Source of the DNA: Oscillospiraceae bacterium
Lineage (GTDB): Bacteria; Bacillota; Clostridia; Oscillospirales; Oscillospiraceae
NCBI GenBank assembly: GCA_031261635.1
Contig: JAISJH010000068.1
Coordinates: 221-64,220, forward strand
Direction of reading: 5' to 3'
DNA length: 64,000 bases
The notes under the pieces were generated by a model. That model was not told the origin of the DNA and ran no database searches. It saw only the letters and a program-made list of their open reading frames with translations. Below are positions 3,557 through 55,781 of the stretch, piece after piece (the first letter of the stretch is position 1; every line of letters starts with the position of its first letter). A program made the translations under genes and the position numbers.

Positions 3557-3907
3557 ATGAACACAGACGTATTGGAAGTCGGTACGGATTTCGCGAAAAA
3601 GCTTGATGTGCAGACCGCTTGCGCGGCAACGGAACAGGACGACCCGCGCTCAATGGCGGAACTCCTCGGGGTAAGCCCGGAGGACGCGTTTGATAATTTT
3701 ATGCGCATTATCAATAAATTTAAGGGGCGTATTCCCTCCGATATAGACGAGGACGCAATATTGGCGGAAAAAAGCAATCCCGCTATATGCGCTATGGAAA
3801 GGTTTCAAAATGAAATGGCGGGTGAATGGGAAAAAGCGGGCATTTATTCTGAAGCTGACTTAGACGCGCTTATGCGCGAAATTCGTTTGGAAGTTGAGAG
3901 CGTATGA
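3557..3907 (+). CDS. putative antitoxin of the downstream PIN-domain toxin
   Basis: 116-aa acidic protein. Its stop overlaps the ATG of the PIN gene (ATGA at 3904). I do not recognise a family; the call rests on position and coupling only. Confidence 0.4.
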   Translation: MNTDVLEVGTDFAKKLDVQTACAATEQDDPRSMAELLGVSPEDAFDNFMRIINKFKGRIPSDIDEDAILAEKSNPAICAMERFQNEMAGEWEKAGIYSEADLDALMREIRLEVESV

Positions 3908-31706: not shown

Positions 31707-31756
31707 CGTGTTACCTCTCGTGAATAGGGGGAATGTCAAATGTTTACCGCACCATT

Positions 31757-32235
31757 TTGTAGGGGCAACGCACCTTGCCTCGCCCGGATTGCGTAACCCA
31801 CGTCCAAACCCCTATCCCCTCTGTGGAGGGGTGCCGCCCGCAGGCGGCGGGGTGGTTTCCCGGCGCCGTGCGCCGTCTTTGCGAGCGCCGGGAAACTAAA
31901 CATACAATCAAGGTATAGGCGCGAAGCAATCCAGTGCCGGGAGCGTAACATACGTATCTGCGGACTGCGGCACTGGATTGCTTCGCGCCTATACATACTA
32001 CGTATCGCAAGTGCGGCGGCGCTCGCAAAGACGGCGCACGGCGCCGGGACGGAGGGCTGGACGAAGGCCTGGACGGCGCACGGCGCCGGGACGGGGGAAA
32101 CCACCCCGCCGCCTGCGGGCGGCACCCCTCCACAGAGGGGATAGGGGTTTGGACGGCGCACGGCGCCGGGACGCGATTTCAGTTAACAATTAACAGTGAA
32201 CAGTGAATAATTACGGGGGTTTGGACGGGGAAACG
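31757..32235. repeat. long near-palindromic mosaic repeat inside the gat operon
   Basis: Left arm CCCCTATCCCCTCTGTGGAGGGGTGCCGCCCGCAGGCGGCGGGGTGGTTTCCCGGCGCCGTGCGCCGTCTTTGCGAGCGCC. It is mirrored by GGCGCTCGCAAAGACGGCGCACGGCGCCGGGA...GAAACCACCCCGCCGCCTGCGGGCGGCACCCCTCCACAGAGGGGATAGGGG. The centre is at CAATCCAGTGCCGG...CCGCACTGGATTG, about 31965. Confidence 0.9.
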
Positions 32236-37800: not shown

Positions 37801-37998
37801 CTTTAGGGCTGAACTCGCCTTTATCGTTGCCGCTGAAAATGTCTAAAGCGGTGACGACCATAGCGGCGTCATAATAGCCCGGGTCGATTTTATCGACGTC
37901 AGTCCACTTCGCGAGGGTCTCGCCGACGAGCTTTGCGTCAGCCCCGGTGCCGATTGTATAGTCGGCCTGTTTGTCGACTGCCGCGGCACTAGTTCCCC
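34832..37998 (-). CDS. silent S-layer (SLH-domain) protein cassette 1: no promoter, SD, start codon or signal peptide
   Basis: The frame is open from the 42-bp core (GTSAAAVDKQADYTIGTG...) to the stop at 34832, with an in-frame TAA at 38014-38012 just upstream of the core. The N-terminal about 230 aa aligns with the four paralogs (TFTRGAAATLLAKAYNTP; GDGWAYAMGFMSGT..FSP; LLVKMLGY; DIIRYAAEARLF..ITYEQAAQILVNA), giving three SLH-like repeats. Confidence 0.8.
37957..37998 (-). repeat. 42-bp recombination core site, copy 1 (silent)
   Basis: GGGGAACTAGTGCCGCGGCAGTCGACAAACAGGCCGACTATA (read on the minus strand), identical in all five copies. Confidence 0.85.
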
Positions 37999-38126
37999 AG
38001 GAATGTACCGTTTACAATATATGTCAGCAAAACTGGCCGCAAAGCTAGACGTTTAGGCGCGCAACGCTCGATTTGGGGCGTTTTGAAAACTCTCGAAACG
38101 CTTCAAAACAGACTCGTTTTGCCCTC
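37999..38126 (-). repeat. conserved non-coding leader of a silent cassette (copy 1)
   Basis: ...GTTTTGAAGCGTTTCGAGAGTTTTCAAAACGCCCCAAATCGAGCGTTGCGCGCCTAAACGTCTAGCTTTGCGGCCAGTTTTGCTGACATATATTGTAAACGGTACATTCCT. It is alignable with the leaders at 41468-41594, 46773-46877 and 50129-50255. Confidence 0.8.
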
Positions 38127-38170
38127 AAAAAGCCCTCCAAACGGTCGTTTTTTCGACCGTTCAGAGGGCT
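38127..38170 (-). terminator. intrinsic terminator upstream of silent cassette 1
   Basis: AGCCCTCTGAACGGTCG-loop-CGACCGTTTGGAGGGCT followed by TTTTT on the minus strand. Confidence 0.75.
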
Positions 38171-38189: not shown

Positions 38190-38378
38190 CTACAGCGAGG
38201 CCTTGACCCTTATGCTCTCATTGGCGATTTTAGGCTTGCGGCGGCGCGCCTCGCGGGCTAATCGCGCGTCGATTTTCGCCTTTTCCGCCTGGTACCACGG
38301 CTCGAGCGCTTCCCAATCCTTTCGAAAATTCGGGTTTTTCATATTTTCCTCGTGCCATTTTTCATAATTCAGCATCAT
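38190..38378 (-). CDS. HigA-like antitoxin remnant lacking the HTH domain
   Basis: N-terminus NPNFRKDWEALEPWYQAEKAKIDAR resembles the leader segment of XRE-type antitoxins that pair with Gp49/HigB toxins. Where the HTH should begin, the ORF continues as LAREARRRKPKIANESIRVKASL and stops. Start overlaps the toxin stop (ATGA). Confidence 0.5.
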   Translation of the reverse strand: MMLNYEKWHEENMKNPNFRKDWEALEPWYQAEKAKIDARLAREARRRKPKIANESIRVKASL

Positions 38379-38725
38379 TTTTTTGCTTTCCTTTCGAAGT
38401 AGATTTTTCTATAATTTTTTGCTTTTTCAATCTCTTTTTTGGGAGTTTTTTGTGTTTTTTTAATAAATCCGTTAGTAAAAACGATGCGTTTTCCAACATA
38501 AAAAAAGTATAGAACGCGGGTAATATCCGAGCCCTGTTTGGCTCTCAGCTCGAAAATTCCGTCGCCGAGCGGGCTCGAATGGGGCTCGCGAAGCGCGGGG
38601 CCGTTTTCGTGAAGCAGCTTCACCACGCGGTCGACCTTAGCCCACATTTTCCCGTCCAAAGCCCCGATAAACTCGCCGACCGGCGACTTCCCGTCCTCGG
38701 TTTCAAACAACTCAATCTCATACAT
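38375..38725 (-). CDS. Gp49/HigB-like RelE-superfamily toxin (copy 1)
   Basis: MYEIELFETEDGKSPVGEFI...GDGIFELRAKQGSDITRVLYFFYVGKRIVFTNGFIKKTQKTPKKEIEKA matches the phage Gp49-like (DUF891) addiction-module killer pattern. Confidence 0.8.
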   Translation of the reverse strand: MYEIELFETEDGKSPVGEFIGALDGKMWAKVDRVVKLLHENGPALREPHSSPLGDGIFELRAKQGSDITRVLYFFYVGKRIVFTNGFIKKTQKTPKKEIEKAKNYRKIYFERKAKK

Positions 38726-38819: not shown

Positions 38820-41467
38820 TCAGGACATCTGTAACCCTATTGTATAGAACAGTTCGGGGCGCGATTTATCGTAGTCTGTACCCGTGAAGTGATACGTGTA
38901 CGAACCGTCCTGGCTCGAAGCATTATATCCGACATCTGTTAACACAAAGATATTTATTTGGTCAGCAGTCGGCGCGGCACTTACGGCTTCAAAGGTAGCC
39001 AAAGTCGGTACTATAGCCGCGCCAACTTGTGTCTTTCCTTCGTATGCTAATAGGGCACCTACAGACGCTGTCGTTTGCGATGCGGATTTTTCTACTATCT
39101 TTGTAATCGGTAAATAAGTTGTTGCGTCTGAGCCAATTGTCAAAGTATAGAATGTTCCGTCCGAGTCGGTTGAAATATCCGTAACAACGCCGAAGCCGGA
39201 AACGTGCGGCTTATCAGCCCATATGTCATAGTTTGGTTTGTCAGCGTCAGTAGAAGCCAACCCTACTCCGTTGTGTACTAAAAACGCTCTGCTTGCAACG
39301 GGATACAGCGACGGGACATATAGAATGTCAACTGTTCCGTCAGTTGCGTAAGCAATGTTCTGGTATCCGGTCGCGGCTCTTGTCGCAAGGTCATACCCAA
39401 ATTCGGGAGACGCGGACGCTGCCGGGTTCAACGCAACTTGTTTTACCGTCGTGGTTGAGGTAATACCTAAGGCCGTTCCGGGCGCCGTTTCATACTGCGC
39501 GTTTGTCCAGTTAGGAAGTGCGGGCCAAATTCCCGGGGTAGCCGTAGACGAACCTGCTGTCGGTGTGTTATCTTGTGTCGCAAGCTGTTTCGCAGAACCG
39601 AGCGAATTGCCGCCTAGTGCGAACAAGGCATATGTCCCGTCAGTCTGAACAACATATTCGTAGAATACGCCGTGTGTTGCAACTGCGGTTTCAAGTTCTT
39701 TAAGGTTCAAGCTGTTTGTTTTTCCGTTACCGTTGATTACAGAATTCTTTGCTGTAAGTCTGATGTTTTTGACAGAACCATCTTCGAGTATAACATATAG
39801 TGTTCCGTCCTCTGCCTGTTTCGCCGCAAGCGATATTCCTTGTGCGCCGGTGGCGACGCTTTTAATCGGAACATACAGGTAGGTGGCAGAATAGGCAGTC
39901 CACGTGGCGACTTTTGCGCCCTCAATGAAGTGCAGCGCACCGTGTTCGCCAATGATTGTGTTTACCTTTCCGTCAATGAAGTTCGCCTGATTTACTACCG
40001 CCAAGTCGGTCGCACCATAGGCGTCCAACGTTAATCCTGCTTTTATCGCGGTTTTTGCCGCGCCGTCGCTTGTATATGATACAGTACCCGCAGAATTACT
40101 ATAGCTCTTGACTGTAATTGAAACAGGTGTAACGGCTTTTGCCGCTAAATATTTTCCTGTCCAAGCATATGAATCCGTCGGAGCGGCAGTAGCCTGAACG
40201 CCAAGAACAAAGGTTTTTGCCGTACTCGGAAGGGTAGCAATTATACCGTCAGTAGTGTTTTTCACTTCATCGGCTGCCAAAAGTTTTACAGTAGCGGCAT
40301 AGGGTCCGGCAGACGGACCGTCATTCAGAATGATTGATTCAAAAATGCCGATTGTCTTGTAAAGTTCGCGCGAATCTTCGGTATATTTTACTAGTTCAAG
40401 GAAAGTTCCGTTCGGGACAGCAACGTTCGTCGCCCCCATAAAGTACAGATAAGTACTTGTAACAGTGGGTTCGGTCGAGCCATTCAGTATTAGTTCTTGT
40501 CCTGCGTTGTTCGACGCGTATGTCGAGTTATAAATTGTATCATCACCCGCCCACGCAAGGCCCGGGGCGGTCAATCCCGCAGTAAAGGAATCGACGACAG
40601 CGTAGTGAGGGACAAAACCCGTGATGTACTTTGTGCTTGTGCTAGAAATTCCACCGCTCCATTTTACTAACGCGGTTCCGGGATAGCCGAACGCGTCACG
40701 CGCGGCCGCGTTTATTCCGTCAGAATATAATGTCTCAAAACCGTAATAATATACCGGTTGCGGTCCGTTGTAACCTGATGTCGTGTCCTGTGTCTTTTGC
40801 AAAAGCGCGGTACGGTTTTGCATATATACATCGTACTGCTGTCCGGTGTATTGGTTGCGGTCGTTCGTTACTCGTTTCGCTTTAAGGGCGTTAACGGTAA
40901 TCTGCGCCGCTTGCTCAAACGTAACTTTTGCGGTCGGGTCAGTCACAGTGATACCTGAAAACAATTTCGATTCCGAAGCGAAGCGGATAATGTCGATTTT
41001 GTAGTTTTCAGTCAAGGTGTATCCGAGCATTTTAACGAGCATACCGGTGTACTCGAGAACGGTAATGTCGCGCGCCGGGGAAAATTCTGTCCCGGCTTTG
41101 TTGGTTCCGCTCATAAAGCCTAGAGCATACGCCCAGCCCGCTCCGTTAGCAGCGTAGCTTCCGTCAGTATCGGTGAACGGTGAAACATAGATAGGGCCAA
41201 GTTCAGCCCAAACTTTAGGCGTGTTGTAGGACTTGGCGAGCAAAGTAGCCGCCGCGCCGCGTGTGAAAGTTTTCTTAGCGTTGAAAGCTCCGTCAGTACC
41301 CTCAAAGATACCGAGAGCCGTCACGACCATAGCGGCGTCGTAGTAACCCGCGTCGATGTCGGCCGCGTCAGTCCACTTGGCGAGGGTCTCGCCGACGAGC
41401 TTCGCGTCAGCCCCGGTGCCTATTGTATAGTCGGCCTGTTTGTCGACTGCCGCGGCACTAGTTCCCC
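38820..41467 (-). CDS. silent S-layer (SLH-domain) protein cassette 2: no promoter, SD, start codon or signal peptide
   Basis: The frame is open from the 42-bp core to the stop at 38820. The N-terminal SLH-like region is conserved (TFTRGAAATLLAKSYNTP; AGWAYALGFMSGT..FSP; MLVKMLGY; DIIRFASESKLF..VTFEQAAQITVNAL). The C-terminal two-thirds are divergent. Confidence 0.8.
41426..41467 (-). repeat. 42-bp recombination core site, copy 2 (silent)
   Basis: Identical 42-mer, in frame with cassette 2. Confidence 0.85.
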
Positions 41468-41594
41468 AGGAATGTACCGTTTACAATATATGTCAGCGAA
41501 ATCGACCGCAAAGCTAGATTATTAGGCTCGCAACCCTCGATTTGGGGCGTTTCAAGTTGTCTCGAAACGCTTTAAAACAGCCTTGTTTTGCCCT
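41468..41594 (-). repeat. conserved non-coding leader of a silent cassette (copy 2)
   Basis: Alignable with 37999-38126. It ends ...GCTGACATATATTGTAAACGGTACATTCCT next to the core. Confidence 0.8.
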
Positions 41595-41640
41595 AAAAAA
41601 GCCCTCCAAACGGCCGTTTTTTTCGACCGGTTAGAGGGCT
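41595..41640 (-). terminator. intrinsic terminator upstream of silent cassette 2
   Basis: AGCCCTCTAACCGGTCG-loop-CGGCCGTTTGGAGGGCT followed by TTTTTT on the minus strand. Confidence 0.75.
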
Positions 41641-41659: not shown

Positions 41660-41845
41660 CTACAGCGAGGCCTTGACCCTTATGCTCTCGGCGGAGATTT
41701 TGGGCTTGCGGCGGCTCGCCTCGCGGGCTAATCGCGCGTCGATTTGGGCTTGTATTTGCTTGCCCCAGTCCTCGAGGGCGTCGTATTCTTTGCGAAATTC
41801 CGGGTCTTTTAATTGTTCCGCTAAATAATCTGAAAATTTTCTCAT
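41660..41845 (-). CDS. HigA-like antitoxin remnant lacking the HTH domain (copy 2)
   Basis: MRKFSDYLAEQLKDPEFRKEYDALEDWGKQIQAQIDAR, then the same tail LAREASRRKPKISAESIRVKASL as copy 1. Confidence 0.5.
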   Translation of the reverse strand: MRKFSDYLAEQLKDPEFRKEYDALEDWGKQIQAQIDARLAREASRRKPKISAESIRVKASL

Positions 41846-42195
41846 AATAAATTCCTCCTGTTTTCCCGGTATTCATCTCTGTATTTTTTTGCTTTTTCAA
41901 TTTCATTGGGCGGTATTTCCTGTGTTTTTTTGATAAAACCGTGCGTCAAAACCACAGTTTTTCCCTCGATAAAAAAGTACAGAACACGTGTAATATTCGA
42001 GCCGGACTGCGCTCGCAACTCCAAAATGCCGTCCCTCAAATACGCCGAATGCGGACGCCCGAGTTTTGGCCCGTTGTCGGCCAATTTTTCAATAACTTTA
42101 ACCATTTTTGTTCTCATTTTTTTGTCCAAAGAATTAAGAAATTCTTCGGCCGGCTTGTCGCCGTTGCCCTTTTCAAACAAAATAATCTCATACAT
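41842..42195 (-). CDS. Gp49/HigB-like RelE-superfamily toxin (copy 2)
   Basis: MYEIILFEKGNGDKPAEEFL...RDGILELRAQSGSNITRVLYFFIEGKTVVLTHGFIKKTQEIPPNEIEKA. Confidence 0.8.
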   Translation of the reverse strand: MYEIILFEKGNGDKPAEEFLNSLDKKMRTKMVKVIEKLADNGPKLGRPHSAYLRDGILELRAQSGSNITRVLYFFIEGKTVVLTHGFIKKTQEIPPNEIEKAKKYRDEYRENRRNLL

Positions 42196-42291: not shown

Positions 42292-45200
42292 CTAAGGTGC
42301 CACGTATTCGTCGAGGTCTAGCCCCGCCCAGGTAAGGATCAGGAAGTTAGCTCCAACGATGTCATAGGATTCTGCTGTATTGGTTCCCATCATAAGGTCT
42401 AAGCTTCCGGCAGGTACCGGTCCGTACGCGATTGTGAAAGTCACGTCGCTAAGCAGGATTCCGCCGCCAATCGCTGTTCCGTCCGCTCCTGCGTAGTCCG
42501 TTCCATACCAGTCGTGCCACGGGTTATTTTCCGCCCACCACGCAAGGAAGTCAGTTTCGTCCAACGTTCCTTCCGGCTGATAAGCTTTATCTCCGTCGTA
42601 GCTTCCTTTTGGTGTCGAGCTGTATACACCACCCGTGAGGTCTGTCGACGAGAACATCGTCTGGTCTGCCGCCGCAAGTGCTTTACTTACATAGATTGCG
42701 GGGTAGAAGCCGTTTCCGGCGTTGTCAAGGACTTCGAGATAAACGGTTGTGTTCGAGTAGTCTTTACCGTCAAGAATTAGATATTCGTCTCCGATATTGC
42801 TGTCTGCCAAGGCAACCGGACTTGTTTTATACGTTGCGTTGTTGATGTAGTACAAGTCATATCCGGCAGTTTCCGAGCCGATTAGGTAACCGTAGTCGCC
42901 TTTTACCGGAACATTGGAGTTCGCCGCAATAATTGCTGAGGGTACCGCGTCATCACCTGTAACCGCAACAGTCTTGTTAATCGCCTTGTTAATCTTAATT
43001 CCTACGCCGTCCGAAGTATTTACGAGGTAGTGCGCGTTAGCACCTTTTCCCGCTGCCATAGCGTTTTCAATTTTGATTACGCGGTCAGGAGATACCACGC
43101 CGCTCGCCCAGTCTGCACCGCCTGAAGTTTCGAAATGTACAATAAATTCTTTAACGGCTGTGTTAGGCGTTACCGCGTTAAGTGCGAGTACGGCAAGCCA
43201 GCTTATGTTATCCGGGTAGATGATTTTGTTGTAGCCAACCCCGGTATTTTTTACAGGTGCTTTCCAGGAGGCGGTCGCTACTGTATCGTAAGGATAGATG
43301 ACCTGGGTAAAGGTTGTGGCCGCGTTGGTATAAACTGTTTGAGCCGTATACGCGCCCGGCATATCCGCTAGGAGATACCCGCCCCAGTTCGGCTTTGCGC
43401 CGGGGTCAGCAAGCGCCAGGTTTGCACGAGAGTCGTGTACGGTAACATACGGCGCCGCAGAGAAAACAGCAACCGCCGCCGCGCCGCCGGCCGGAGCCGC
43501 TACGTCAAACAGGTTTACTGTGCTGCCCGTTACAACAGTGTACTCATAGAATGTCGTTGCTTTAACATCGTCCGGGTCTAGATAGTTCTTTGCACCCGCG
43601 CCGTTGAGGGCTTCTTTGTCGCTAAGTGTGATTACTCCGATTGAACCGTCGTCGTAGATAACGTCGAACTGGTCGTCTTTAAGCGTGTCGCTTCTGTCAG
43701 ACGCGAACAGGTTACTCTCTACCCCGGCAAGTGCAGGGATAAACAGATACTTCGCGCCGAGAGCCGTCCACGTTGTGTCTACGCTGGTACCCGCGTTGTA
43801 CAGAACGCCGTGCGAGCCGATTACGAGTTTGAAGCGTCCTTCGACCGCCGTTGATTCTGTCCCGAGAGCGGAACCCTGGAAGTTGTTGTCAAGTCCGGTA
43901 GCGGTTACGCCGTCAACTACATATGTTATACGTCCGAGTGTCCGTATATTGCTCGTTACCGTGACAACCTGTTCTTTCGCTCCCTCTGCGTAGAAGTAAA
44001 CGAAATCTTTAGATGTCGCGCCGGAGTTTGCTTCGTCCTTAATGTACAGAGCGAAGGAACCGACATCGACTGTAGCTTTAGCGTTTTTGGCCGCAAGCAG
44101 CGGGCTGAGTTTGTATTCGGTAGCCGCCGTAAGAGCCGCGGCGCTTGCCGTCTCTTTGAAAGCGACGTCCTTGTAGTTCAGTTCGCCGGACGCGTCGGTG
44201 TAGCTAACCACATCAACGTAGGTGCCAAGTAAGAATCCGCCTGAAAGACGTTCCGGGTGGTCTACCGCTCCGACTTTCACGGAGTTCTTAATTGCGCTAA
44301 GCGTAGTTACCGCGCCGTTAAGTACGATACCGCCGCCGGTCGTTTTGACAGCCGCCGCGTGACCGGAGGAACCGGCTGTGCTAAGCGTTGTAAGCCCCGC
44401 TGTAAAGTCGCCTACACTTGTAAAGTGCGGTACAAAACCCGCGATATAGCCCGCGCTGTAGGTATTGTTAGCCGCTTTAAGAATTAGAGCTGTTCCGGGA
44501 TAACCGTATGCGTCGTGAGCCTCAGCCGCTGTCGCTGTACGTGTCAGCGTAGCCAAAGTATAGTTGTACTTTCTCGCGTCTATTATAGTAGAGGTAGGCG
44601 CAATCGTACCGTCGTAAAGCAACGGTGTACGGTTAACCGAATACGTGTCATAATTCTGACCTGTATACGAGTTACGGTCACTTGCTACGCGGTCTGCCTG
44701 TAGCGCGTTAACCATAATCAGTGAGGCCTGTTCGTAGGTAATCTTTGCGTTCGGGTCAGAGATAGTGATACCTCTGAATAGGTTCGCTTCACTCGCAAAG
44801 CGAATGATGTCGGTCTTATAATTCTCGGTAAGCGTATAGCCGAGCATTTTAACCAACATACCGGTAAACTCGATAACGGAAATCTCGCGTTTGGGGCTGA
44901 AATAAATCTGCCCGCCGGCACTTCCGGTACCGCTCATATACCCGAGTGCATACGCCCAGCCGTCGCCGTTGCCGTAATCACTAACGTGGTCAACAAACGG
45001 TGAGACATAAATGTCGCCGAGCTGTTCCCAGGTAGCGGGCGTGTTATACGCTTTAGCGAGCAACGTAGCCGCCGCGCCGCGTGTAAAGGTGGTTTTTGGG
45101 GTAAGCTCCTTATTGGTATTACCCGTGCGGATACCAAGAGCCGCTAAAACCATTGTAGCGTCGTAATAGCCCGCGTCAAGCTCCGCGATATCGGTAAACT

Positions 45201-45345
45201 GAGCAAGCTGCTCGCCGACAGCCTTCCCGTCCACCGTATAGTCGGCCTGTTTGTCGACTGCCGCGGCACTAGTTCCCCCAAAGGCGAACATTCCGACTAT
45301 CATCGTGAGCGCGAGGACTAACGATAATATGCGTTTTGTGGTCAT
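42292..45345 (-). CDS. expressed S-layer protein (three N-terminal SLH-like repeats plus a large variable domain)
   Basis: This is the only paralog with an ATG (45345), an SD (GGAGGA) and a promoter. Signal peptide MTTKRILSLVLALTMIVGMFAFGGTSAAA; 1017 aa, rich in T/A/G/V/Y as is typical of S-layer proteins. SLH-like motifs: TFTRGAAATLLAKAYNTP; GDGWAYALGYMSGT..FSP; MLVKMLGY; DIIRFASEANLF..ITYEQASLIMVNAL. Confidence 0.85.
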   Translation of the reverse strand: MTTKRILSLVLALTMIVGMFAFGGTSAAAVDKQADYTVDGKAVGEQLAQFTDIAELDAGYYDATMVLAALGIRTGNTNKELTPKTTFTRGAAATLLAKAYNTPATWEQLGDIYVSPFVDHVSDYGNGDGWAYALGYMSGTGSAGGQIYFSPKREISVIEFTGMLVKMLGYTLTENYKTDIIRFASEANLFRGITISDPNAKITYEQASLIMVNALQADRVASDRNSYTGQNYDTYSVNRTPLLYDGTIAPTSTIIDARKYNYTLATLTRTATAAEAHDAYGYPGTALILKAANNTYSAGYIAGFVPHFTSVGDFTAGLTTLSTAGSSGHAAAVKTTGGGIVLNGAVTTLSAIKNSVKVGAVDHPERLSGGFLLGTYVDVVSYTDASGELNYKDVAFKETASAAALTAATEYKLSPLLAAKNAKATVDVGSFALYIKDEANSGATSKDFVYFYAEGAKEQVVTVTSNIRTLGRITYVVDGVTATGLDNNFQGSALGTESTAVEGRFKLVIGSHGVLYNAGTSVDTTWTALGAKYLFIPALAGVESNLFASDRSDTLKDDQFDVIYDDGSIGVITLSDKEALNGAGAKNYLDPDDVKATTFYEYTVVTGSTVNLFDVAAPAGGAAAVAVFSAAPYVTVHDSRANLALADPGAKPNWGGYLLADMPGAYTAQTVYTNAATTFTQVIYPYDTVATASWKAPVKNTGVGYNKIIYPDNISWLAVLALNAVTPNTAVKEFIVHFETSGGADWASGVVSPDRVIKIENAMAAGKGANAHYLVNTSDGVGIKINKAINKTVAVTGDDAVPSAIIAANSNVPVKGDYGYLIGSETAGYDLYYINNATYKTSPVALADSNIGDEYLILDGKDYSNTTVYLEVLDNAGNGFYPAIYVSKALAAADQTMFSSTDLTGGVYSSTPKGSYDGDKAYQPEGTLDETDFLAWWAENNPWHDWYGTDYAGADGTAIGGGILLSDVTFTIAYGPVPAGSLDLMMGTNTAESYDIVGANFLILTWAGLDLDEYVAP
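45237..45278 (-). repeat. 42-bp recombination core site, copy 3 (expression site)
   Basis: The identical 42-mer encodes G-T-S-A-A-A-V-D-K-Q-A-D-Y, the end of the signal peptide and the first mature residues. Upstream of it the sequence is unique (signal-peptide exon), not the silent leader. Confidence 0.85.
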
Positions 45346-45352
45346 TTTGTTT

Positions 45353-45460
45353 TCCTCCTAATGTTAGGTGAATTTTTTGTACGCTTGCATTTTACCACAC
45401 TATTCCCGAATATGTCAAGAGGCAAAAGCATATTGTAACAGAACTGTAACATTAGGAGGA
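45353..45460. repeat. perfect 14-bp inverted repeat bracketing the S-layer promoter
   Basis: TCCTCCTAATGTTA at 45353-45366 and TAACATTAGGAGGA at 45447-45460. The proximal arm contains the SD of the expressed gene. Confidence 0.8.
45389..45418 (-). promoter_or_regulatory. strong sigma-A promoter of the S-layer expression site
   Basis: On the minus strand: TTGACA (45418-45413), 18-nt spacer, extended -10 TGgTAAAAT (-10 hexamer 45394-45389). Confidence 0.75.
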
Positions 45461-45479: not shown

Positions 45480-46643
45480 CTACGCCACAAAAACCTCCTT
45501 CATATATTCATAATACAGCATAGCCGCCTCGCGCTTCTGCTCCGGCAAGACGTCAATGTAGATTGAGTGGACGTCGCCGCCGCCGCGGTGTCCCATAAGC
45601 TCGCGGCAGACGCTCTCCTTGACCCCGGCGGCCTCCATATAGGTGCCGTAGCTATGGCGGAACAGGTGAAAATGAACAGCGCGGGGGTTAATTCCCCGCG
45701 CTGTCCAAAACCTGCTGATTGCGTTGCGTAAGCCGCTGTAGCTGTAAATCTCGCCGAATTTATTCGGGAACACGAGTTTTTGGCCGCCGCTGTCGGCTTT
45801 TCGTTTCCGCAGCATTTTCAGCAGGGATTTGTGAACGTAGATGTCGCGGGCCGAACCCTCGGTTTTGGGGCCTCCGACGCGCCCCTTGTATTCGTCGGAG
45901 CTTTGCGCGGGGTCGGGAACGCGCTTGTAGGCTTTGACGACGCGAATGTAACCCAGCTCGAAGTTAATATTGCCGTATTCAAGCGCGATAACCTCCCCGA
46001 TACGCATACCGGTATGCAAAAGCGTGAGAATTATAGGCGCGTAGGTGCTGTTATCGCGAACCTCGCGAAGCGCGGTCTTAAGCGTCTCAAAGGGAATAGC
46101 CGCGGCGCGGTCGCGCTCGATTTGGGATTTTTTACCATTCAAAAAGTTTTTTAGAAAGCGCATAGGACTGCGCCGGATAATGTTTTCCTCGAGAGCTATG
46201 TCGAAAATGCGGTTTAATAGAAATTTTATTTTTAATAATATTGAAATACTTGGAGTTTGTCCGTTTTTTAATTGCACATTTTTGAAAAATTCTTTAATAT
46301 CGTCGGGGTTTATGTCCTCGATAAATACGCCTTCAAAACCGGGAAATCTGTAAATATAAAGTAAATAATATTCGTAACCCGCGAGGGTCGTGGCCTCCTG
46401 TTCGTCCTTGATAATTGATTCGTAGGCGTATTTCGCGTAGTCTGTAAGAGGGTGCTTCCCGGCGGCCGTATCGCCCGCCGCAAAGCGTTCTAGCTCCCTC
46501 GCATGAATGTATTTTCCGCAAACGACGGTGAGTTCCTTGTGTTCGGTAAGCTCGGAAATAATAGAGGTTTTAAGTCCCAAAATTTTCCCGGATTCCCGAA
46601 ACGTGTACAAAAGTTTTTCCTGCGGCATTCTTTCCTGTGGCAT
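45480..46643 (-). CDS. tyrosine-type site-specific recombinase (phage integrase family), candidate S-layer cassette invertase
   Basis: Catalytic signature LLHTGMRIGEVIAL (Arg), HLFRHSYGTYM (His-x-x-Arg), and LMGHRGGGDVHSIYIDV (His...Tyr). ATG at 46643 follows AAGGAG. The track ORF start at 46712 lies in the promoter. Confidence 0.85.
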   Translation of the reverse strand: MPQERMPQEKLLYTFRESGKILGLKTSIISELTEHKELTVVCGKYIHARELERFAAGDTAAGKHPLTDYAKYAYESIIKDEQEATTLAGYEYYLLYIYRFPGFEGVFIEDINPDDIKEFFKNVQLKNGQTPSISILLKIKFLLNRIFDIALEENIIRRSPMRFLKNFLNGKKSQIERDRAAAIPFETLKTALREVRDNSTYAPIILTLLHTGMRIGEVIALEYGNINFELGYIRVVKAYKRVPDPAQSSDEYKGRVGGPKTEGSARDIYVHKSLLKMLRKRKADSGGQKLVFPNKFGEIYSYSGLRNAISRFWTARGINPRAVHFHLFRHSYGTYMEAAGVKESVCRELMGHRGGGDVHSIYIDVLPEQKREAAMLYYEYMKEVFVA

Positions 46644-46682: not shown

Positions 46683-46712
46683 ATTATAACGGAAAATGTA
46701 GGCAATTGTCAA
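46683..46712 (-). promoter_or_regulatory. sigma-A promoter of the recombinase gene
   Basis: TTGACA (46712-46707), 18-nt spacer, TATAAT (46688-46683). It shares the 14-nt TTTGCCTCTTGACA with the S-layer promoter. Confidence 0.7.
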
Positions 46713-46772: not shown

Positions 46773-46877
46773 GAAGCGTTTCGAGAGTTTTCAAAACGCC
46801 CCAAATCGACGGTTGCGAGCCTAAACGTCTAGCTTTGCGGCCAATTTCGCTGACATATATTGTAAACGGTACATTCG
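46773..46877 (+). repeat. conserved non-coding leader of a silent cassette (copy 4, no terminator)
   Basis: GAAGCGTTTCGAGAGTTTTCAAAACGCCCCAAATCGACGGTTGCGAGCCTAAACGTCTAGCTTTGCGGCCAATTTCGCTGACATATATTGTAAACGGTACATTC. It is 1 nt shorter before the core than the other leaders. Confidence 0.8.
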
Positions 46878-46919
46878 GGGGAACTAGTGCCGCGGCAGTC
46901 GACAAACAGGCCGACTATA
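46878..46919 (+). repeat. 42-bp recombination core site, copy 4 (silent, inverted relative to the expression site)
   Basis: GGGGAACTAGTGCCGCGGCAGTCGACAAACAGGCCGACTATA on the plus strand. Confidence 0.85.
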
Positions 46920-49798
46920 CAATAGGCACCGGGGCTGACGCAAAGCTCGTCGGCGAGACCCTCGCGCAATTTGCCGACATCGCGGACCTCGACGCGGGGT
47001 ATTACGACGCTACGATGGTTCTCGCGGCTCTTGGTATCCGCGCGGGTAATCCTAACAAGGAACTCACCCCTAAAACCACCTTTACGCGCGGCGCGGCGGC
47101 TACACTTTTAGCCAAAGCGTACAATACGCCCGCCACTTGGGAACAGCTCGGCGAAATTTATGTCTCACCGTTTGTTGACCACGTTGGTGATTATGGAAAC
47201 GGCGACGCTTGGGCATATGCTCTCGGCTTTATGAGCGGCACCGGAAGCGCGGGCGGGCAGCTCTATTTCAGCCCCAAACGCGATATTTCCGTTATCGAGT
47301 TCACAGGTATGCTGGTTAAAATGCTCGGTTACACGCTTACCGAGAGCTACAAGACCGACATAATCCGCTTTGCGAGTGAAGCGAATCTGTTCAATGGTAT
47401 CACGATATCCGACCCCAGCGCGAAAATCACCTATGAACAGGCTTCGCTGATTATGGTTAACGCGCTGAAAGCGCCCCGCGTAGCGAGTAACCGCAACGAG
47501 TATACGGGTCAGAAGTATGACACGTATTCGCCTAACCGCTTACCGTTACTTAGCGAAAAAAAGACCGGTGATAACTTGACTTATGGCGCGCTTACAGACA
47601 TCAAGTATAATTATTCCTTTGGTGGGAACGACGCGTTCGGCTATCCCGGAACTTCGCTGGTTGCAATTACAAAATCCAGTATTGCGAACAAAGACCAAAT
47701 CCTTGGTTTCGTCCCGCATTACACATTTGAAACTTCGTACACCCAAGGCTTGAACCGCCCGGTCGCGGGTCCGACTACGCTCCCCGGAACTGCGGCACTT
47801 GAGGCCGTTCAGCCAATAGAAGTGTTTGAGAACGGTGAGGCAGCGGAGTACGGTCTTGATTTCGCAAACGCGTCAACTTATGTTCCTGCGAATGGAACGT
47901 ATGCGGAAGTCGTTTCGTATACCGCAAATGACGGCACGACTAAATTCCGCACCGTATCCGTTTTGGAAACTCTGGTTGCTCAGGGCGCATATGACGCTGA
48001 AAAAGTATTTTCCGGTGCGACGTCAGTGGGCGGGCAAAAACTCTTAACATTTGCAGCTTACACACCCGGTTATGCTCTTGTTGCCTATACCGCGACGGCT
48101 ACAGCGGGTCCGGTTTTATCGGCACGCGCTGTCACCGCAGAAAAGAAAAACATCACTACAATAATCGGCTCAAAATTTACCGCAAAAGATGTTGATGGTA
48201 CAACTACTTCCACATACGTAAGTGCGAAGTTGGCTGACAAAACGGTTCCTATTGCTGCCGATGGCTTTACACCGTTTGTATCAGTTAGTGGTTTGAAAGA
48301 TACCACCGGTATATTTGAAGTGGTACTCGGTGAACACGGCGAGTTATTCTACGCGAATGACCCGGCTACAACGTGGTCGTGGGCAACGGCAAAATATCTG
48401 TTTGTTCCTGACCAGAGCAGTGCAATTGCCACCGCGGTTGCTACAAACGTAGCAAGTACGCAAACGGTACTCATTTTGGAGGACGGAACGGTTGTCAAAG
48501 GTGTTATTGCGGCGGCTAAAACAGCAACGAGCCAACATAATACACTAAACGTTGTTCCGGGTGTTTCAGCAAACCTGTTTAATACATTCTACGAGTATGA
48601 AATAGTAAACGGAGAATATGCTCTTTATGCGCTGACGGGGGCGATAGACACAACATACGCATATACTGTTACTGGGGCGACTGCGGGCGCCGTGTCCCCG
48701 GGGCTAAACCCCTCGCTTGGACTGGCGCAAAGCGGAACTGTCGCAGGTGTCCCTCTTACCGCCTTGACTAGCATTAAACAAATAGGCGTCAAAACCGGAA
48801 CGCCTCCGTCTGCTGGTGTCACAAATGTCAAAACACAAACGCTGACAGGCTATCATAAAGTAAAAACATCAGCCACAGGCGGGTCGTACATTTTAGAAGT
48901 ATATACGCCGCTAGCACCCGGACAATATTCAACACGAGCTGTTTGGATTTCTGCCGACGCTATAGGACACGGCGATATTACAACCCCGGCGTTCAAAGCT
49001 ACAGGATATGCGCTTGGGTTGCCATATGGGAACTTTGCTTGGTATGCGGAGCCCATTTACACAGTGGGCGATACCACGTATGACATCTACATTTACAACA
49101 CCACCACATACGCATACGCGAAACTTTTCAATACATCAGATACTACTTTTGCCGGAAAAGTGAGTGGCCAAGATAACGGCATACTCGCATATAACGAAAC
49201 AGAAGTGCAAATTCTGGACGCTACTTATTTCGTAGCAAAAATCGGAACAATAACGGCAGATAACGTTAGCATATTTACTGACATAGGCGGACCTGTGACC
49301 TATGCGCGTACTACGGTTGATTCTCCCAAAATCGACCAAACTGGCGCACAGTTGTTCTTATCTGCTACTCCGTCGACTTTGACTACAATTAACGCAACCG
49401 CTTCTGACGCAATCGCAACTATCCAAGCTACCGCTACAGCCACTGCGGCGGTCATAGGCGGCTACGCGAAGGCCGCGGCATGTCCGGCGTTAGCAAGCGC
49501 TACAGCGTTCAAAACAAATACAAGTAATGTTTGGACTGCTGCGTCATTGAACAATCTTGCCGACCATCTAATCCTATGGGAACCCCTGTGGACGGCGATT
49601 GAATCTAAGTTAAATTCTGACGCGACAAACGAAGCAAAAACCGCTGAACAAACCTATGCTGACGCAATAAAATTCTTGAACGCCGCTAGCGCGGAAGTCG
49701 CATTGAATACCAAGAACAGTACGGATATCAACGTAGCGCGTACTAAACTAGACGCATTTTTAACTGGTAAAATAGCTTGGCTTGACGGTATATCCTAA
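46878..49798 (+). CDS. silent S-layer (SLH-domain) protein cassette 4: no promoter, SD or signal peptide
   Basis: GTSAAAVDKQADYTIGTGADAKLVGETLAQF..., then the conserved SLH-like region and a divergent C-terminal part. The track ORF extends upstream to a TTG at 46706 through the leader and the recombinase promoter (basic junk sequence MSRGKCRKKSKGRRERG, no signal peptide). Confidence 0.8.
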
Positions 49799-49900: not shown

Positions 49901-50074
49901 ATGGCTAAAAACGCGGCGGAAATTTCAGCGAGGGCTTTGCGAGCAAACACGCTTCGCGAGATAAGAGATACATTGCTCATCATAAAGCCCGGCGAATTAG
50001 AAAAATTGCCGGAGGAAATCGACAAACTCGCCGAAGCACTCAAAAAAGAAGCCGACGAGCTTACGAAAATCTAG
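49901..50074 (+). CDS. small hypothetical helical protein (57 aa)
   Basis: ATG at 49901 follows TAGGAGGG. MAKNAAEISARALRANTLREIRDTLLIIKPGELEKLPEEIDKLAEALKKEADELTKI. It sits between a promoter and a terminator in the position the toxin pairs occupy on the other arm. It falls below the ORF-track length cutoff. Confidence 0.45.
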   Translation: MAKNAAEISARALRANTLREIRDTLLIIKPGELEKLPEEIDKLAEALKKEADELTKI

Positions 50075-50082
50075 CGTGAAAT

Positions 50083-50128
50083 AGCCCTCCAAACGGTCGA
50101 AAAAAACGGCCGTTTGGAGGGCTTTTTT
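50083..50128 (+). terminator. intrinsic terminator upstream of silent cassette 5
   Basis: AGCCCTCCAAACGG-loop-CCGTTTGGAGGGCT followed by TTTTT. Confidence 0.8.
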
Positions 50129-50255
50129 AGGGCAAAACGAGGCTGTTTTGAAGCGTTTCGAGAGTTTTTGAAAAGCCTCAAATCGACGGCTGCGAGCCTA
50201 AACGTCTAGCTTTGCGGCCAATTTTACTGACATATATTGTAAACGGCACATTCCT
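50129..50255 (+). repeat. conserved non-coding leader of a silent cassette (copy 5)
   Basis: ...GTTTTGAAGCGTTTCGAGAGTTTTTGAAAAGCCTCAAATCGACGGCTGCGAGCCTAAACGTCTAGCTTTGCGGCCAATTTTACTGACATATATTGTAAACGGCACATTCCT, with an in-frame TAA before the core. Confidence 0.8.
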
Positions 50256-50297
50256 GGGGAACTAGTGCCGCGGCAGTCGACAAACAGGCCGACTATA
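50256..50297 (+). repeat. 42-bp recombination core site, copy 5 (silent, inverted relative to the expression site)
   Basis: Identical 42-mer on the plus strand, in frame with cassette 5. Confidence 0.85.
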
Positions 50298-53200
50298 CCG
50301 TAACCGGCGCGGCCAACTCCGGGCTTATCGGCGAGACGCTCGCTAAGTGGAAAGACGCTGACAAAATCAGCGCGGAGTATCTTGACGCCGCTATGGTTGT
50401 CACCGCTCTTGGTATCTTCAGCGGTACTGATACTGACAATGACGGTATCGGCGATACTTTCAACGCCGCGACAACATTCTCGCGCGGCTCCGCGGCTACT
50501 TTGCTTGCGAAAGCCTATACTACGCCCGCAACCTGGGAAAAGACACAGGGCGCGTATGTTTCGACCTTCACCGATACCGGCACGCAGGGTCAGTACCCCG
50601 CAACCGGCGCGGGCTGGGCGTATGCATACGGCTTTATGAGCGGCACGAACGCCGGCGGGACGCAGTTTAGCCCCGACCGTAAAATCACACAGCTTGAGTA
50701 TGCGGGAATGCTCGTGAAAATGCTCGGCTACCACCTCACCGATAATTACAAAACCGACATCGCGCGTTTCGCTAACGAAGTCGGACTGTTCTCGGGGATT
50801 GACAACATCAACCTCACAGAGCTGATTACCTACGAACAGGCGGCAAAAATCACCGTCAACGCGCTGCTCGCGCAACCGGTTTACAACGACCGCGACAAGT
50901 ACACAACATCTGTCGACGTGTACGAACCGCGCCCGAACTATGCTCCCTTACTTTCGAGTAACCCGACTTTAGGAATACAGGGTATCAAATACCGCGCCAC
51001 CTACTCACAAATCGACGACGTGGCAGATCCGTATCCGCTTAACGCGCGTGACGCCTTCGGTTATCCCGGAACCGCGCTTACATATACTAACGGATACATC
51101 GCCGGCTTTGTACCGCACTATACCGTAATCGGAAAAGGTACTAAGGGGCTGACCGCAAGTTATATCTATTCCGCAGGTCCTACGGGTTATTTCCGCCCGG
51201 ATGGTACGGCTTATGACTTCCAAGACCAATATTTCAATAATGGAACTAGTGGCACTTATCCGTGGAACACAACGACATATGCTGACGAGGCCGTACGCGG
51301 AACCTATGGCGAACTTGTAACGTACACAGATTATCAAGGTAAAACAAAATATCGCTTGGTTGAGGTGTATGAAACTACCGACAATATTACAAACGGAACA
51401 ACTACAACCCAATTGACTTATGATATATCAGTAGAACCAAAAGCTTCAAAAACGACTTTCCCGGCTAACAGCCTTGTCAGTCGTGTAACGAAAGGTGCTT
51501 CTGTCATTTCAGCTAAAGTTGTTACGCCTGTGGTCGCGTCCGTGCTTTCGTACACAACTGCGGACGGATATCAAAACACAGCGACCCTATCAATTGACGG
51601 TAAAACTGTGTCAGCAGTTGCGATTAGTACGATAAACATATCGGACGTACATTTCGTAAGTGACAAAATTACTGTTTATGTAGGTGACCACGGTGACATA
51701 CAATGGCAGAAAAACGTGAAGGATTCCACGTGGTCAGCTGCTACTGCCGATTATCTCTACGTCCCGGAGACTGCAATTGCTGCGGGAGGTTACTTGGGCG
51801 TAGCTCATACCGTAGATAATTCGTTTGATGTAGTTTTAGATAGCGGTAAGGTAGTAACTCAAATCAAAATCGCTAAAGCGGGAACGACAGTAAATGGAAA
51901 CGGTATAACCAACGTTGCAAACAACATTTACGACAAATTCTTTGAATACGTAATTCAATCGGATGGAAGTTATGCACTCTTTGTGCCGTATTTAAGCACA
52001 GCGTATGCCCCTAACTTGGCAATTGCCTCGGCAACTGCAAAATCTTATACTGTTGTTGACCCGGCATTCACGAATGCTAACCCGACGGCAAAAGTTGGCG
52101 CGGTTAACGTAAGTCAAGTAAAAAATAATAGTGGATTTGCCTTAAATAACGCAATATTAGGCTCAAACACGACAACAGAAATCAAATCAGTTTATATAAA
52201 CACAGACACGACGAGTGGCGCTTATAATCCTGCTAACCTAAGTGGACCAATAGGAACTTATACGACTGTAGGATACCAAAACTTAGTATTCCCCGTAGTA
52301 GTTGGCGCGTCAATACGTGTTCTTACGGCTATTGATAACCCATATGAGATGGCGGCGGCCGGAACAGCAAAAAAATTGTTCTCCGTTCATTTGGGAACGA
52401 CGGCATTGACAGCCACAGGATCAAACGTAGTTGGTTGGACATCTTCGCTTCTTCCTGCGAAATACGCGACTACAGTAGCGAAAGTAACAAACGCAAATGG
52501 AGTATACAGCATTTATTCAAATGCGTTTGGAAGTTCTATTGACTATCCGGCATATGATGTTCTCGTTGGTACTACAACAGCGAGCACCGTAGGTGGAGAA
52601 ACACCGGCTGTTGGACAGTACGCCGTGTTTAATGAAACGGATTACTGGCTTGCAACTAAGGAAATGTTTGACGTGTCTGTTATATCGGCAACAATAAACG
52701 CTACAACAGACCAAGCACTCTCACTCGGTTCACCTGCTTCGGGTTACTACAGAGCAAAAGATACTAACGCCATTTTGCCAGACAACTTCTATGTAACTGT
52801 CGCTGGATTTGAAAAGCTTAGTGGTAACGCTATATATACTAACGGCAACGGACTGAAAAATTATATTGACAATTTGGGTAAAACCGCAGATGCTGCTGTT
52901 AGTGCTGCGTTCGAACAGGCCTTTTATGTTACCTTTATGCCGGAAGGCCCCGCAAAGGTAGCAGCTTCTGCTGCTGCGTCCAATGCCATAGCGAGCGCGA
53001 GCGCCGGACAGGTTTCTGCAAGAGCAGCAGCAATTACTGAAGCAAAAAGACTTGTTCCGACAGTTGCCGCGAAACCCGCTCTGTATGCGGAGATTGTCGA
53101 CACTACTGCAGGAAAAACAGACGCGACCCAAAAAACCGCTATTGAAGCATTAGTCAAAGATGTGTTTGGGGTTACTACTATCAACGGTGCCTTAGACGAT

Positions 53201-54097: not shown

Positions 54098-54128
54098 TAG
54101 TAAAATATTGGGAACGCAATCTTTAGTT

Positions 54129-54585
54129 AACAGTTATCAAATATCAAATATCAGAGCCGGTGTAACAGTTAACAGTTAGCAAATATCAAATATTAGAGAC
54201 GGGGGGCTTGGACGGGGGGCGCGTCCGCGCTCGGCGCGGGAAACCACCCCGGCGCTACGCGCCACCCCTCCCAAGAGGGGAATTTTCCGCGCACGGCGCG
54301 GGGACGGAATACAACCCCTGCATACGGTTCCCGCGTGCGCGCCCCTATTCCCCTCTTGGGAGGGGTGCCGCCGCAGCGGCGGGGTGGTTTCCCCCGCAGG
54401 GCGCAACTCCCGTCCAAACCTTTCGTCTCTGATATTTGATATTTGCTATCTGTTAACTGAACTTTCGTCTCTGATATTTAATATTTAATAACTGTTAACT
54501 GAACTTTCGTCTCTGATATTTGATATTTAATAACTGTTAACTGAACTATCGTCTCTGATATTTGATATTTGCTAACTGTTAACTG
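54129..54585. repeat. composite mosaic repeat ending in a 4 x 42-bp tandem array of the terminal module
   Basis: Terminal modules at 54129-54158 and 54164-54200, and paired CCCCTCTTGGGAGGGG / GAAACCACCCCGGCG palindromes. CGTCTCTGATATTTGATATTTGCTAACTGTTAACTGAACT.T starts at 54424, 54466, 54508 and 54550. The last unit supplies the hemW stop codon. Confidence 0.9.
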
Positions 54586-55781
54586 ATTAAAGCGTAGTAG
54601 TCGTCCTCTCGCCAGGGGGTTCCTACTTGGGATTTACGTTCCGCCTGGGCGTCGAGGAGTTCGCCGATTAGCCTGTTGGAGAGGAGGAAGCCTTTGGGGG
54701 TCAGGAGGTAGGCGTCGCCGCGTTTTCGCGCGAAGCCTAGTTTTTCGTAGGTCACGAGCGTTTTTTCGAGGGTGTCGAAGCCTCCGCGGTAGATTTGCTC
54801 GTAGCCCTGCCGCGTAATGCCGCGCGTTGTGCGAAGCCCGAGCATAATGTACTCGGCGGCCTTGCTGTAGGCGTTCAGCGTTTCGCTGTCCTCGTCGTTG
54901 ACGACGTTAGTCCCGCCCTCGACCGCCGCGATGTAAGCGTCGGGCGAGCGCAGGTAGCTGTAGCGCGAGTTACCGAGAAACGAAGCCGCCGAAGCTCCGA
55001 AGCCGGCGTACTCCTCCAGAAGCCAGTATTTGAGGTTGTGCCGCGACTCGAAGCCCTTTCGCGCGAAGTTTGAGATTTCGTATTGAGCGAAGCCCGCGCC
55101 GCCGAGCGTATCGACCGCGTAGAGGTACATATCCGCCTGCATATCGTCGTCGGGGATATCGGGAGCGCGGCGTACCCGCCAGAGCGGCGTATTGCGCTCG
55201 ATTTTCAGCCCGTAGGCCGATATATGCTGCGGAGCGGAGCGCAGAACGCCGCTTAGTGTCTGCGCCCAGTCCTCACGCGTCTGCCCCGGCAGGCCGTAGA
55301 TTATGTCAACGCTGACGTTTTCAAAACCCGCGAGCTTCGCGTCAAGCACAGCGTCAAGCGCAAGCTCGGCGTTATGCAAACGCCCAAGGTTCGAGAGCTG
55401 CGCGTTATTGAGCGTCTGCACCCCGATTGAGATACGGTTGAAGCCGTCCCTGCGAAGAAGCTTCAGCTCGTCCCGCCGTATGCTCTCGGGGTTTGCCTCG
55501 AACGTAATCTCCGGGGTTTTGGAAATTTTATAGTCCCTGTCGATAGCCGATAGGAGCCTCGACAGCCGCTTCGCCCCGTAGTGGGTAGGCGTCCCGCCGC
55601 CGAAGTAAATTGTATCCACTTCATACCCCTCAAGGCGCGGCGCGAACTCGCGCAAATGCTTCAAAAGCGCACGCTGGTAGGCGTCCATAAGCCCGTCCTT
55701 ATCGGGAAATGAACAGAAATCGCAGTAAACACACTTCGATTTGCAAAACGGCAGATGGACGTAAATCCCGATGTTTCTCAT
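54579..55781 (-). CDS. hemW: radical SAM heme chaperone HemW (coproporphyrinogen III oxidase-like)
   Basis: YVHLPFCKSKCVYCDF is the CxxxCxxC cluster motif, with a HemN-like C-terminal domain; 400 aa. Confidence 0.9.
   Translation of the reverse strand: MRNIGIYVHLPFCKSKCVYCDFCSFPDKDGLMDAYQRALLKHLREFAPRLEGYEVDTIYFGGGTPTHYGAKRLSRLLSAIDRDYKISKTPEITFEANPESIRRDELKLLRRDGFNRISIGVQTLNNAQLSNLGRLHNAELALDAVLDAKLAGFENVSVDIIYGLPGQTREDWAQTLSGVLRSAPQHISAYGLKIERNTPLWRVRRAPDIPDDDMQADMYLYAVDTLGGAGFAQYEISNFARKGFESRHNLKYWLLEEYAGFGASAASFLGNSRYSYLRSPDAYIAAVEGGTNVVNDEDSETLNAYSKAAEYIMLGLRTTRGITRQGYEQIYRGGFDTLEKTLVTYEKLGFARKRGDAYLLTPKGFLLSNRLIGELLDAQAERKSQVGTPWREDDYYALIS

Follow-up and report, generated by a model that had tools for sequence, protein, structure and literature searches.

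A probable three-part leader module on the silent cassettes of a predicted S-layer gene shufflon

Why should promoter-less copies of a surface protein gene all carry the same stretch of upstream DNA? The question is raised by a 64,000-nt stretch of DNA from an uncultured Oscillospiraceae bacterium (the window), in which an 18.6-kb block at about 34.8–53.4 kb holds five paralogous SLH-domain surface protein genes of 0.85–1.03 kaa. All five genes contain a 43-nt core, GGGGAACTAGTGCCGCGGCAGTCGACAAACAGGCCGACTATAC, which is present five times in the window with 0 mismatches, where chance would give no copies. Three cores are in direct orientation on the minus strand, in silent cassette 1 (37956–37998; cassette body down to 34832), silent cassette 2 (41425–41467; body down to 38820) and the expressed gene 42292–45345, or cassette 3 (45236–45278). 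The other two are inverted on the plus strand, in silent cassette 4 (46878–46920; body to 49798) and silent cassette 5 (50256–50298; body to 53401). Among the five copies, only 42292–45345 (minus strand) has a promoter, Shine-Dalgarno (SD) sequence, ATG and signal peptide. Its expression site (45279–45418, minus strand) forms the upstream side of its core and consists of a near-consensus promoter (TTGACA-18-TAAAAT, 45418–45389), the SD, the ATG at 45345 and the signal-peptide codons; the upstream sides of the other four cores are leaders. A tyrosine recombinase gene (45480–46643, minus strand; PF00589, E=3.5e-18) lies between the expression site and the core of cassette 4, with its own promoter (46712–46683) matching 12 of 12 consensus positions. 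A recombinase at the locus, one expression site and an identical site in both orientations characterize a shufflon of the vsa/HvsR type. Judged by its sequence features, this is an S-layer (SLH) gene shufflon of five cassettes, with a single expression site and a resident tyrosine recombinase, in which inversion is predicted. Scans of contig collections returned no second copy of the locus.

The first-pass annotation had placed an alignable leader ahead of all four silent cores and named a multiple alignment of the four as a check. Alignment of the upstream sides of the cores bears out both the leaders and their coordinates: four of the five sides are homologous, while that of the expression site does not align with the leaders. 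Leader 1 (L1; 37999–38126, minus strand), leader 2 (L2; 41468–41594, minus strand) and leader 5 (L5; 50129–50255, plus strand) are 127–128 nt long and 86–91% identical to one another. Leader 4 (L4; 46773–46877, plus strand) is 105 nt long and 87–94% identical to the other three, with weak homology extending to about 46751. It is located upstream of the recombinase promoter, which points in the opposite direction. The 2.3-Mb assembly contains no further leader copies. A leader would be the upstream half of a silent cassette, standing where the expressed gene has its expression site but with no promoter of its own, and recombination at the core would make leader and expression site swap places.

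Strong terminators had been claimed ahead of three of the leaders, and their structure holds. Intrinsic terminator T1 (38127–38170, minus strand), directly before leader 1, forms a 17-bp stem followed by UUUUU (z −4.8), and T5 (50083–50128, plus strand) has 17 pairs, 11 of them GC (z −5.8). Together with T2 (41595–41640, minus strand), which stands immediately ahead of leader 2 as T5 does of leader 5, they have stems of 16–17 bp followed by 5–6 U and folding z-scores from −4.8 to −5.8; 0 of 200 shuffles fold as well, and where the copies differ in their stems, G·U pairing on the transcribed strand accommodates the change. Each lies 8–19 nt past the stop codon of a small gene. T1 closes an operon of a Gp49/HigB-like toxin (PF05973) and a 62-aa partner (38375–38725 and 38190–38378), and T2 ends a second toxin-partner operon (41842–42195 and 41660–41845), so that the toxin with a 61–62-aa partner occurs twice, in units 1 and 2. 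A 57-aa ORF without a Pfam match (49901–50074), followed by T5, fills the slot held by the toxin-antitoxin pairs in units 1 and 2. Each cassette ends with its own small hairpin terminator, which overlaps a TTGACT-17-TATACT promoter, and the 57-aa ORF has the same terminator-overlapping promoter and the same type of large terminator as the toxin operons. This promoter is predicted to drive small genes, namely a toxin with its partner twice and the unrelated 57-aa ORF once. The large terminators are foremost the 3' ends of these small upstream operons; it is plausible that they would also shield the silent cassettes from read-through. Whichever gene is upstream (antitoxin or 57-aa ORF), units 1, 2 and 5 become homologous about 10 nt before the terminator stem. 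The same module boundary behind different upstream genes therefore indicates that terminator, leader and core travel as one module. In leader 4 the terminator is absent, and the upstream DNA is the recombinase promoter.

An in-frame TAA had been reported before the core in leaders 1, 2 and 5, with leader 4 being 1 nt shorter and its frame open. Both statements agree with our reading. The TAA is found at 38014–38012 (minus strand) in leader 1, within a 79-nt proximal spacer (37999–38077), and at equivalent positions in leaders 2 and 5; each of the three has three in-frame stops within its last 60 nt. The frame of leader 4 is open back to a TTG at 46706. The TAA is missing from leader 4 and also from the orthologous leader of a second lineage described below, which is open for 33 codons and contains an in-frame ATG. 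No upstream ORF reads into a leader, so the stops have nothing to stop. The in-frame stops, which are not conserved, would not be what silences the cassettes. The silent cassettes have no promoter, SD or start codon, and three of them lie behind strong terminators; it is these missing signals, plus the terminator, that would keep them silent.

To what extent the leaders are under selection is best judged from a second lineage. Among 5.8 billion proteins, the recombinase has only two relatives, on contigs L007 and L008. L007 is a 3951-nt metagenome contig whose recombinase is 94% identical in amino acids, and its layout is the same as in the window: cassette, core, leader, recombinase promoter, recombinase and expression-site promoter. 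Crossovers would fall within the core, which makes the L007 leader the positional ortholog of leader 4. The between-lineage contrast is drawn with this one outgroup sequence over 127 columns, L008 (1780 nt) being too short to include a leader. The L008 contig carries a 57%-identical recombinase homolog bracketed by a 44-nt inverted repeat (1–44 and 1293–1336), each arm of which holds a terminator hairpin; the 3' end of a large minus-strand ORF comes after it. The L008 recombinase gene may be located on its own invertible segment. Other searches for relatives were negative. A search of 60 relatives gave no leader DNA, one of 150 genomes of the family gave no recombinase at E<=1e-20, and exact and degenerate core patterns had no match in metagenome and genome contigs. 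A recombinase-profile scan of genome contigs returned distant integrases only (23–47% identity), and a profile of the cassette N-terminus had no match in a large protein collection. The toxin has thousands of homologs at 60–67% identity, with no sister copy among them.

Compared with the window, the L007 recombinase gene shows 86.5% nucleotide identity, with 69% at third positions and 60% at 4-fold sites. The two promoters are 85% and 91% identical and the expression site 91%. The core matches at 38 of 43 positions, and is thus different at 5 of 43 between lineages yet invariant inside the window genome. The L007 leader is 69% identical to leader 4 and 71–73% identical to leaders 1, 2 and 5. 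In the 105 nt adjoining the core, there are 0 indels despite 31% substitutions. We also considered whether the L007 cassette is an alternative inversion state of the window locus, and rejected this: it is a sixth type, 41% identical in amino acids to cassette 1, and is uninformative on switching. The L007 DNA that separates the recombinase stop codon from the promoter of the expression site contains a GC-rich hairpin and three tandem AAATTTCCCCC-like units (3790–3850), neither of which is present in the window.

Within the window, the four leaders are 86–94% identical pairwise, while 4-fold sites in the adjacent SLH coding DNA are 38–56% identical (65% for cassettes 3 and 4), so synonymous sites of that DNA are saturated; the 4-fold sites of the two toxin genes are 39% identical. 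The zone of 80–100% identity around the core ends at about +93 and begins at about −330 in units 1 and 2, −190 in unit 5 and −105 in unit 4. Cassette 4 is a mosaic with a breakpoint: the first ~88 nt after its core (46921–47010) resemble cassettes 1 and 2 (92–94%), and the next ~450 nt resemble the expressed cassette 3 (87–88%). Cassette 3 itself has a 12-nt deletion immediately after the core relative to the other cassettes. The window paralogs are far more alike than the L007 ortholog, and therefore most of the leader similarity stems from gene conversion around the recombination site. Within-genome identity above between-genome identity, together with the mosaic tract, is what concerted evolution would produce, and the comparison shows leader similarity to come mostly from this process and not from purifying selection. 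High similarity among repeats inside one genome is hence no evidence of function; here it is mostly copy-correction. The first-pass annotation had argued that the leader is better conserved than DNA that needs only to be silent. Within the genome the statement stands (86–94% against 38–65% at 4-fold sites). As a statement about functional constraint it finds no support in the 69–73% identity to L007, which is close to the value for third positions of the recombinase gene (69%), with a partial exception for the distal ~45 nt (89% against 62%). The second-lineage comparison alone separates these constrained 45 nt from the drifting 80 nt.

The distal element occupies 38078–38126 (minus strand) in leader 1, 41547–41594 in leader 2 and 50129–50176 in leader 5. 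It consists of GTTTYGARR units with a phase of ~10 bp, spaced 9–11 nt, three in the window and four in L007. The L007 leader has a single indel, an additional 11-nt repeat unit that leaves the helical phase unchanged. In the alignment of L007 with leader 5, identity is 41/46 (89%) in the distal part and 50/81 (62%) in the proximal part (Fisher p=0.0009), a contrast that is suggestive, as the split was drawn after viewing the data and with one outgroup. The distal part is more conserved than 4-fold sites (p=0.0001) and third positions (p=0.003); for the proximal part, no difference from third positions is seen (p=0.19). The identity of L007 to the window consensus is 90–100% at −127 to −88, 55–65% at −87 to −38 and 70% beside the core.

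Internal dyads had also been described in the leader. The dyad GCGTTTYGAG-N4-YTYRAAAMGC is indeed found in all four leaders (38078–38101, 41547–41570, 46776–46799 and 50153–50176) and is absent elsewhere in the 2.3-Mb assembly. It is kept in all 5 copies when L007 is included, with 92% of cells paired versus 28–56% when the partners are slid, and there are no compensatory changes among the five copies. The distance from dyad to core is 78–79 nt in every copy and both lineages, whereas the distance from the distal element to the recombinase promoter varies (24 nt versus 38–64 nt). The GTTTYGARR motif occurs in the leaders only, and is absent near the expression site and elsewhere in the genome. 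Since the expression site has no such element, an accessory role would be one-sided. In leader 4 the first ~22 nt of the distal element are missing or scrambled, which means that one copy can do without this part at least. Conservation between lineages and the fixed 78–79 nt to the core make an accessory-site role plausible, and we regard the distal element as a candidate accessory site for recombination.

We then propose a model in which the silent cassettes of the SLH shufflon carry a leader module of three parts: a terminator, a distal accessory element and a converted spacer. On the sequence evidence, we consider that this model is probably right. The terminator, whose structure is evident, would end the upstream small operon and block read-through. 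The distal ~45 nt, from −127 to −80, would most likely be an accessory protein-binding or bending site, and its binding partner could be the extra N-terminal domain of the recombinase. The proximal ~80-nt spacer would matter in length and not in sequence, holding the distal element at a set distance from the core. As the comparison shows, its sequence drifts approximately neutrally between lineages, and gene conversion, in tracts that would start at the core, keeps all copies within a genome nearly identical.

A simpler account would grant the leader no sequence-specific role. The leader would be a pure by-product, derived from whatever DNA stood before an ancestral silent copy, with its copies alike through duplication and gene conversion around the core. 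The distal conservation would then be due to chance, to the low complexity of T-tract DNA or to a regulatory piece belonging to the recombinase promoter and copied passively from leader 4. The concerted-evolution signature and the mosaic cassette 4 are what such an account predicts. It also agrees with a leader RNA that folds no better than shuffles (z +0.6 to −1.1), has no match to an Rfam family and shows no compensatory pair changes in the dyad. Further points in its favour are that leader 4 does without the first part of the distal element and that it lies upstream of the recombinase promoter in both lineages. We nevertheless find this account somewhat unlikely. It leaves unexplained why the distal part is so much better conserved than the proximal part between lineages (89% versus 62%, p≈0.001), and better than synonymous sites. 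It also does not explain why the constant distance of 78–79 nt is to the core and not to the recombinase promoter, or why the extra unit in L007 is one whole 11-nt repeat.

The proximal spacer, in turn, speaks against the opposite extreme, in which the whole leader is a selected insulator, with terminator, in-frame stop and internal sites all maintained for silence and the binding of recombination proteins. Terminators ahead of three leaders, stops in leaders 1, 2 and 5 and the high within-genome identity all agree with that proposal. We hold it to be improbable all the same, as the proximal 80 nt change between lineages at close to the neutral rate, the stops are absent from leader 4 and from the L007 ortholog with its in-frame ATG, and no upstream ORF enters the leader; the free drift of stops and proximal sequence is seen once, in L007. 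It is highly improbable that the leader is a decayed expression site, namely an old 5' UTR and signal-peptide codons minus promoter, SD and ATG. The last 22 codons in the frame of leader 4 (KRLALRPISLTYIVNGTF) loosely resemble the signal peptide (KRILSLVLALTMIVGMFAF), with a BLOSUM62 score that 35 of 5000 shuffles reach, but the likeness was picked post hoc and exists only in the frame of the leader with the 1-nt deletion. An expression-site fossil was rejected, as neither local nor core-anchored DNA alignments are better than shuffles. A structured RNA or a small peptide encoded by the leader, such as that of a 31-codon ORF with a TTG start (38045–38140), is the least credible reading of all. 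Although this 31-aa ORF recurs in leaders 1, 2 and 5 and the hairpin is conserved, the leader lies behind a strong terminator without its own promoter, and the ORF, which is missing from leader 4 and has no SD, begins at a TTG within the terminator stem. The best matches of the leader in Rfam 15 score 15–22 bits against gathering cut-offs of 37–100. With folding within the range of shuffles, no Rfam family and a dyad without compensatory changes, a structured RNA was rejected.

Returning to the three-part model, which protein could bind the distal element? The closest solved structure to the catalytic and core-binding parts of the recombinase is that of Tn1549 Int (6emy), and XerD is also among the PDB relatives. 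Members of the Tn1549 Int family make use of arm-type sites (PMC8138268). The recombinase of the window has, in addition to its catalytic and core-binding parts, about 100 N-terminal residues that precede the SAM-like domain. This N-terminus has no Pfam match; in a homolog (P0002, 57% identical), the first 50 residues match HTH_17 with E=1e-4 and 22.9 bits, below the cut-off of 27. An AlphaFold (AF2) model of the N-terminus from 3 sequences has a pLDDT of 43 and is unusable. The heterobivalent recombinases lambda Int and Tn916/Tn1549 Int (for the classification, see PMC8138268) and XerCD at cer and psi have repeated binding sites some 80–150 bp to one side of the crossover core, and only one partner has them. 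Such arm-type or accessory sites contribute to the assembly of a bent complex, which governs partner choice and directionality. Repeated sites at a fixed, one-sided distance that are conserved between lineages are likewise found here, with one outgroup, the likeness being one of sequence conservation and phasing. If DNA-binding, the sub-threshold HTH_17-like N-terminal domain would be of the excisionase type, unlike the classical three-stranded arm-binding fold.

It is tempting to speculate that the distal element is an arm-type array present on silent copies only, bound by the N-terminal excisionase-like HTH or by a bending protein. Synapses between an armed silent copy and the unarmed expression site would then favour expression-changing inversions over deletions. 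This extension of the model is tentative and, on balance, doubtful. If true, it would describe a tyrosine invertase that works like a heterobivalent integrase, and deletions between the three directly repeated cores would be disfavoured. The known tyrosine invertases Rin, Tsr15 and FimB/E are described as having no arm-binding domains, and for Rin the question has been posed how an armless enzyme inverts between inverted sites yet avoids deletions between direct sites (PMC6109161). With three direct and two inverted cores, an extra N-terminal region in the recombinase and an element on the silent side, the locus offers a small cloneable substrate for this question.

The overall design has precedents. 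In the summary given in PMC2268961 (of Bhugra 1995 and Shen 2000), the vsa/HvsR locus of Mycoplasma pulmonis has one expression site with promoter, ribosome-binding site and 5' coding end, which the silent genes do not have; a short identical site inside the coding region undergoes site-specific inversions, and a recombinase gene is present at the locus. As far as that summary describes it, the likeness extends to the single expression site, the silent genes without a 5' end, the identical site within the gene and the local tyrosine recombinase gene. Relative to the same description, the locus reported here differs in that it encodes an SLH S-layer protein in an uncultured Oscillospiraceae-type Firmicute, has its core right after the signal peptide and has a recombinase nearest to Tn1549-type integrases. 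We know of no description, for vsa, of a shared terminator and leader module with phased repeats at a fixed distance from the site. In Mycoplasma bovis vsp and M. agalactiae vpma (Xer1/Mbr recombinase), a highly conserved 5' untranslated region, common to all members of the family, holds the recombination site, and inversion moves one promoter among the genes (PMC2268961). In those loci the recombination site and the conserved upstream region are one and the same, and each gene has an SD, ATG and signal peptide of its own. Unlike vsp and vpma, the present locus has its site within the coding sequence and its conserved upstream DNA on silent copies only.

For S-layer genes, inversion brings a single promoter to another paralog in Campylobacter fetus sap and Lactobacillus acidophilus slpA/slpB. 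The paralogs of both systems share a conserved 5' region that reaches upstream of the coding sequence, and their silent genes are complete ORFs. Exchange at C. fetus sap is largely RecA-dependent homologous recombination over ~600 bp, and we know of no dedicated tyrosine recombinase inside the sap or slpA/slpB invertible segments. The general strategy of S-layer inversion is thus already known; what is new is the three-part leader with a possible one-sided accessory array. SLH proteins are among the gene families enriched at predicted programmed inversions (PMC9881135).

Other contigs and other parts of the window contain inverted repeats as well. Among distant relatives from the same bacterial family, S-layer inversion takes other designs. 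One of them (L029, G176:C22; 4406–4759 and 11156–11509) has two convergent S-layer genes that share, in inverted orientation, an identical stretch with the SD, ATG, signal peptide and first ~170 nt. An unrelated 360-aa tyrosine recombinase, 21% identical to that of the window, lies between them, in a two-gene promoter-swap design. Three further members of the family, L030 (G143:C1), L031 (G035:C70) and L032 (G227:C38), have 2–4 S-layer paralogs each, whose 5' ends form inverted repeats of 500–700 nt at 84–94% identity; no recombinase was found among the ORFs examined on L030. In the window, at 54114–54595, AT-rich 42-nt tandem repeats and inverted copies of them flank a ~170-nt segment just upstream of a radical-SAM gene (54579–55781). 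At 31801–32155, nested inverted repeats of 76–82 nt (83–92% complementary) lie inside or beside ORFs at 31736–32161.
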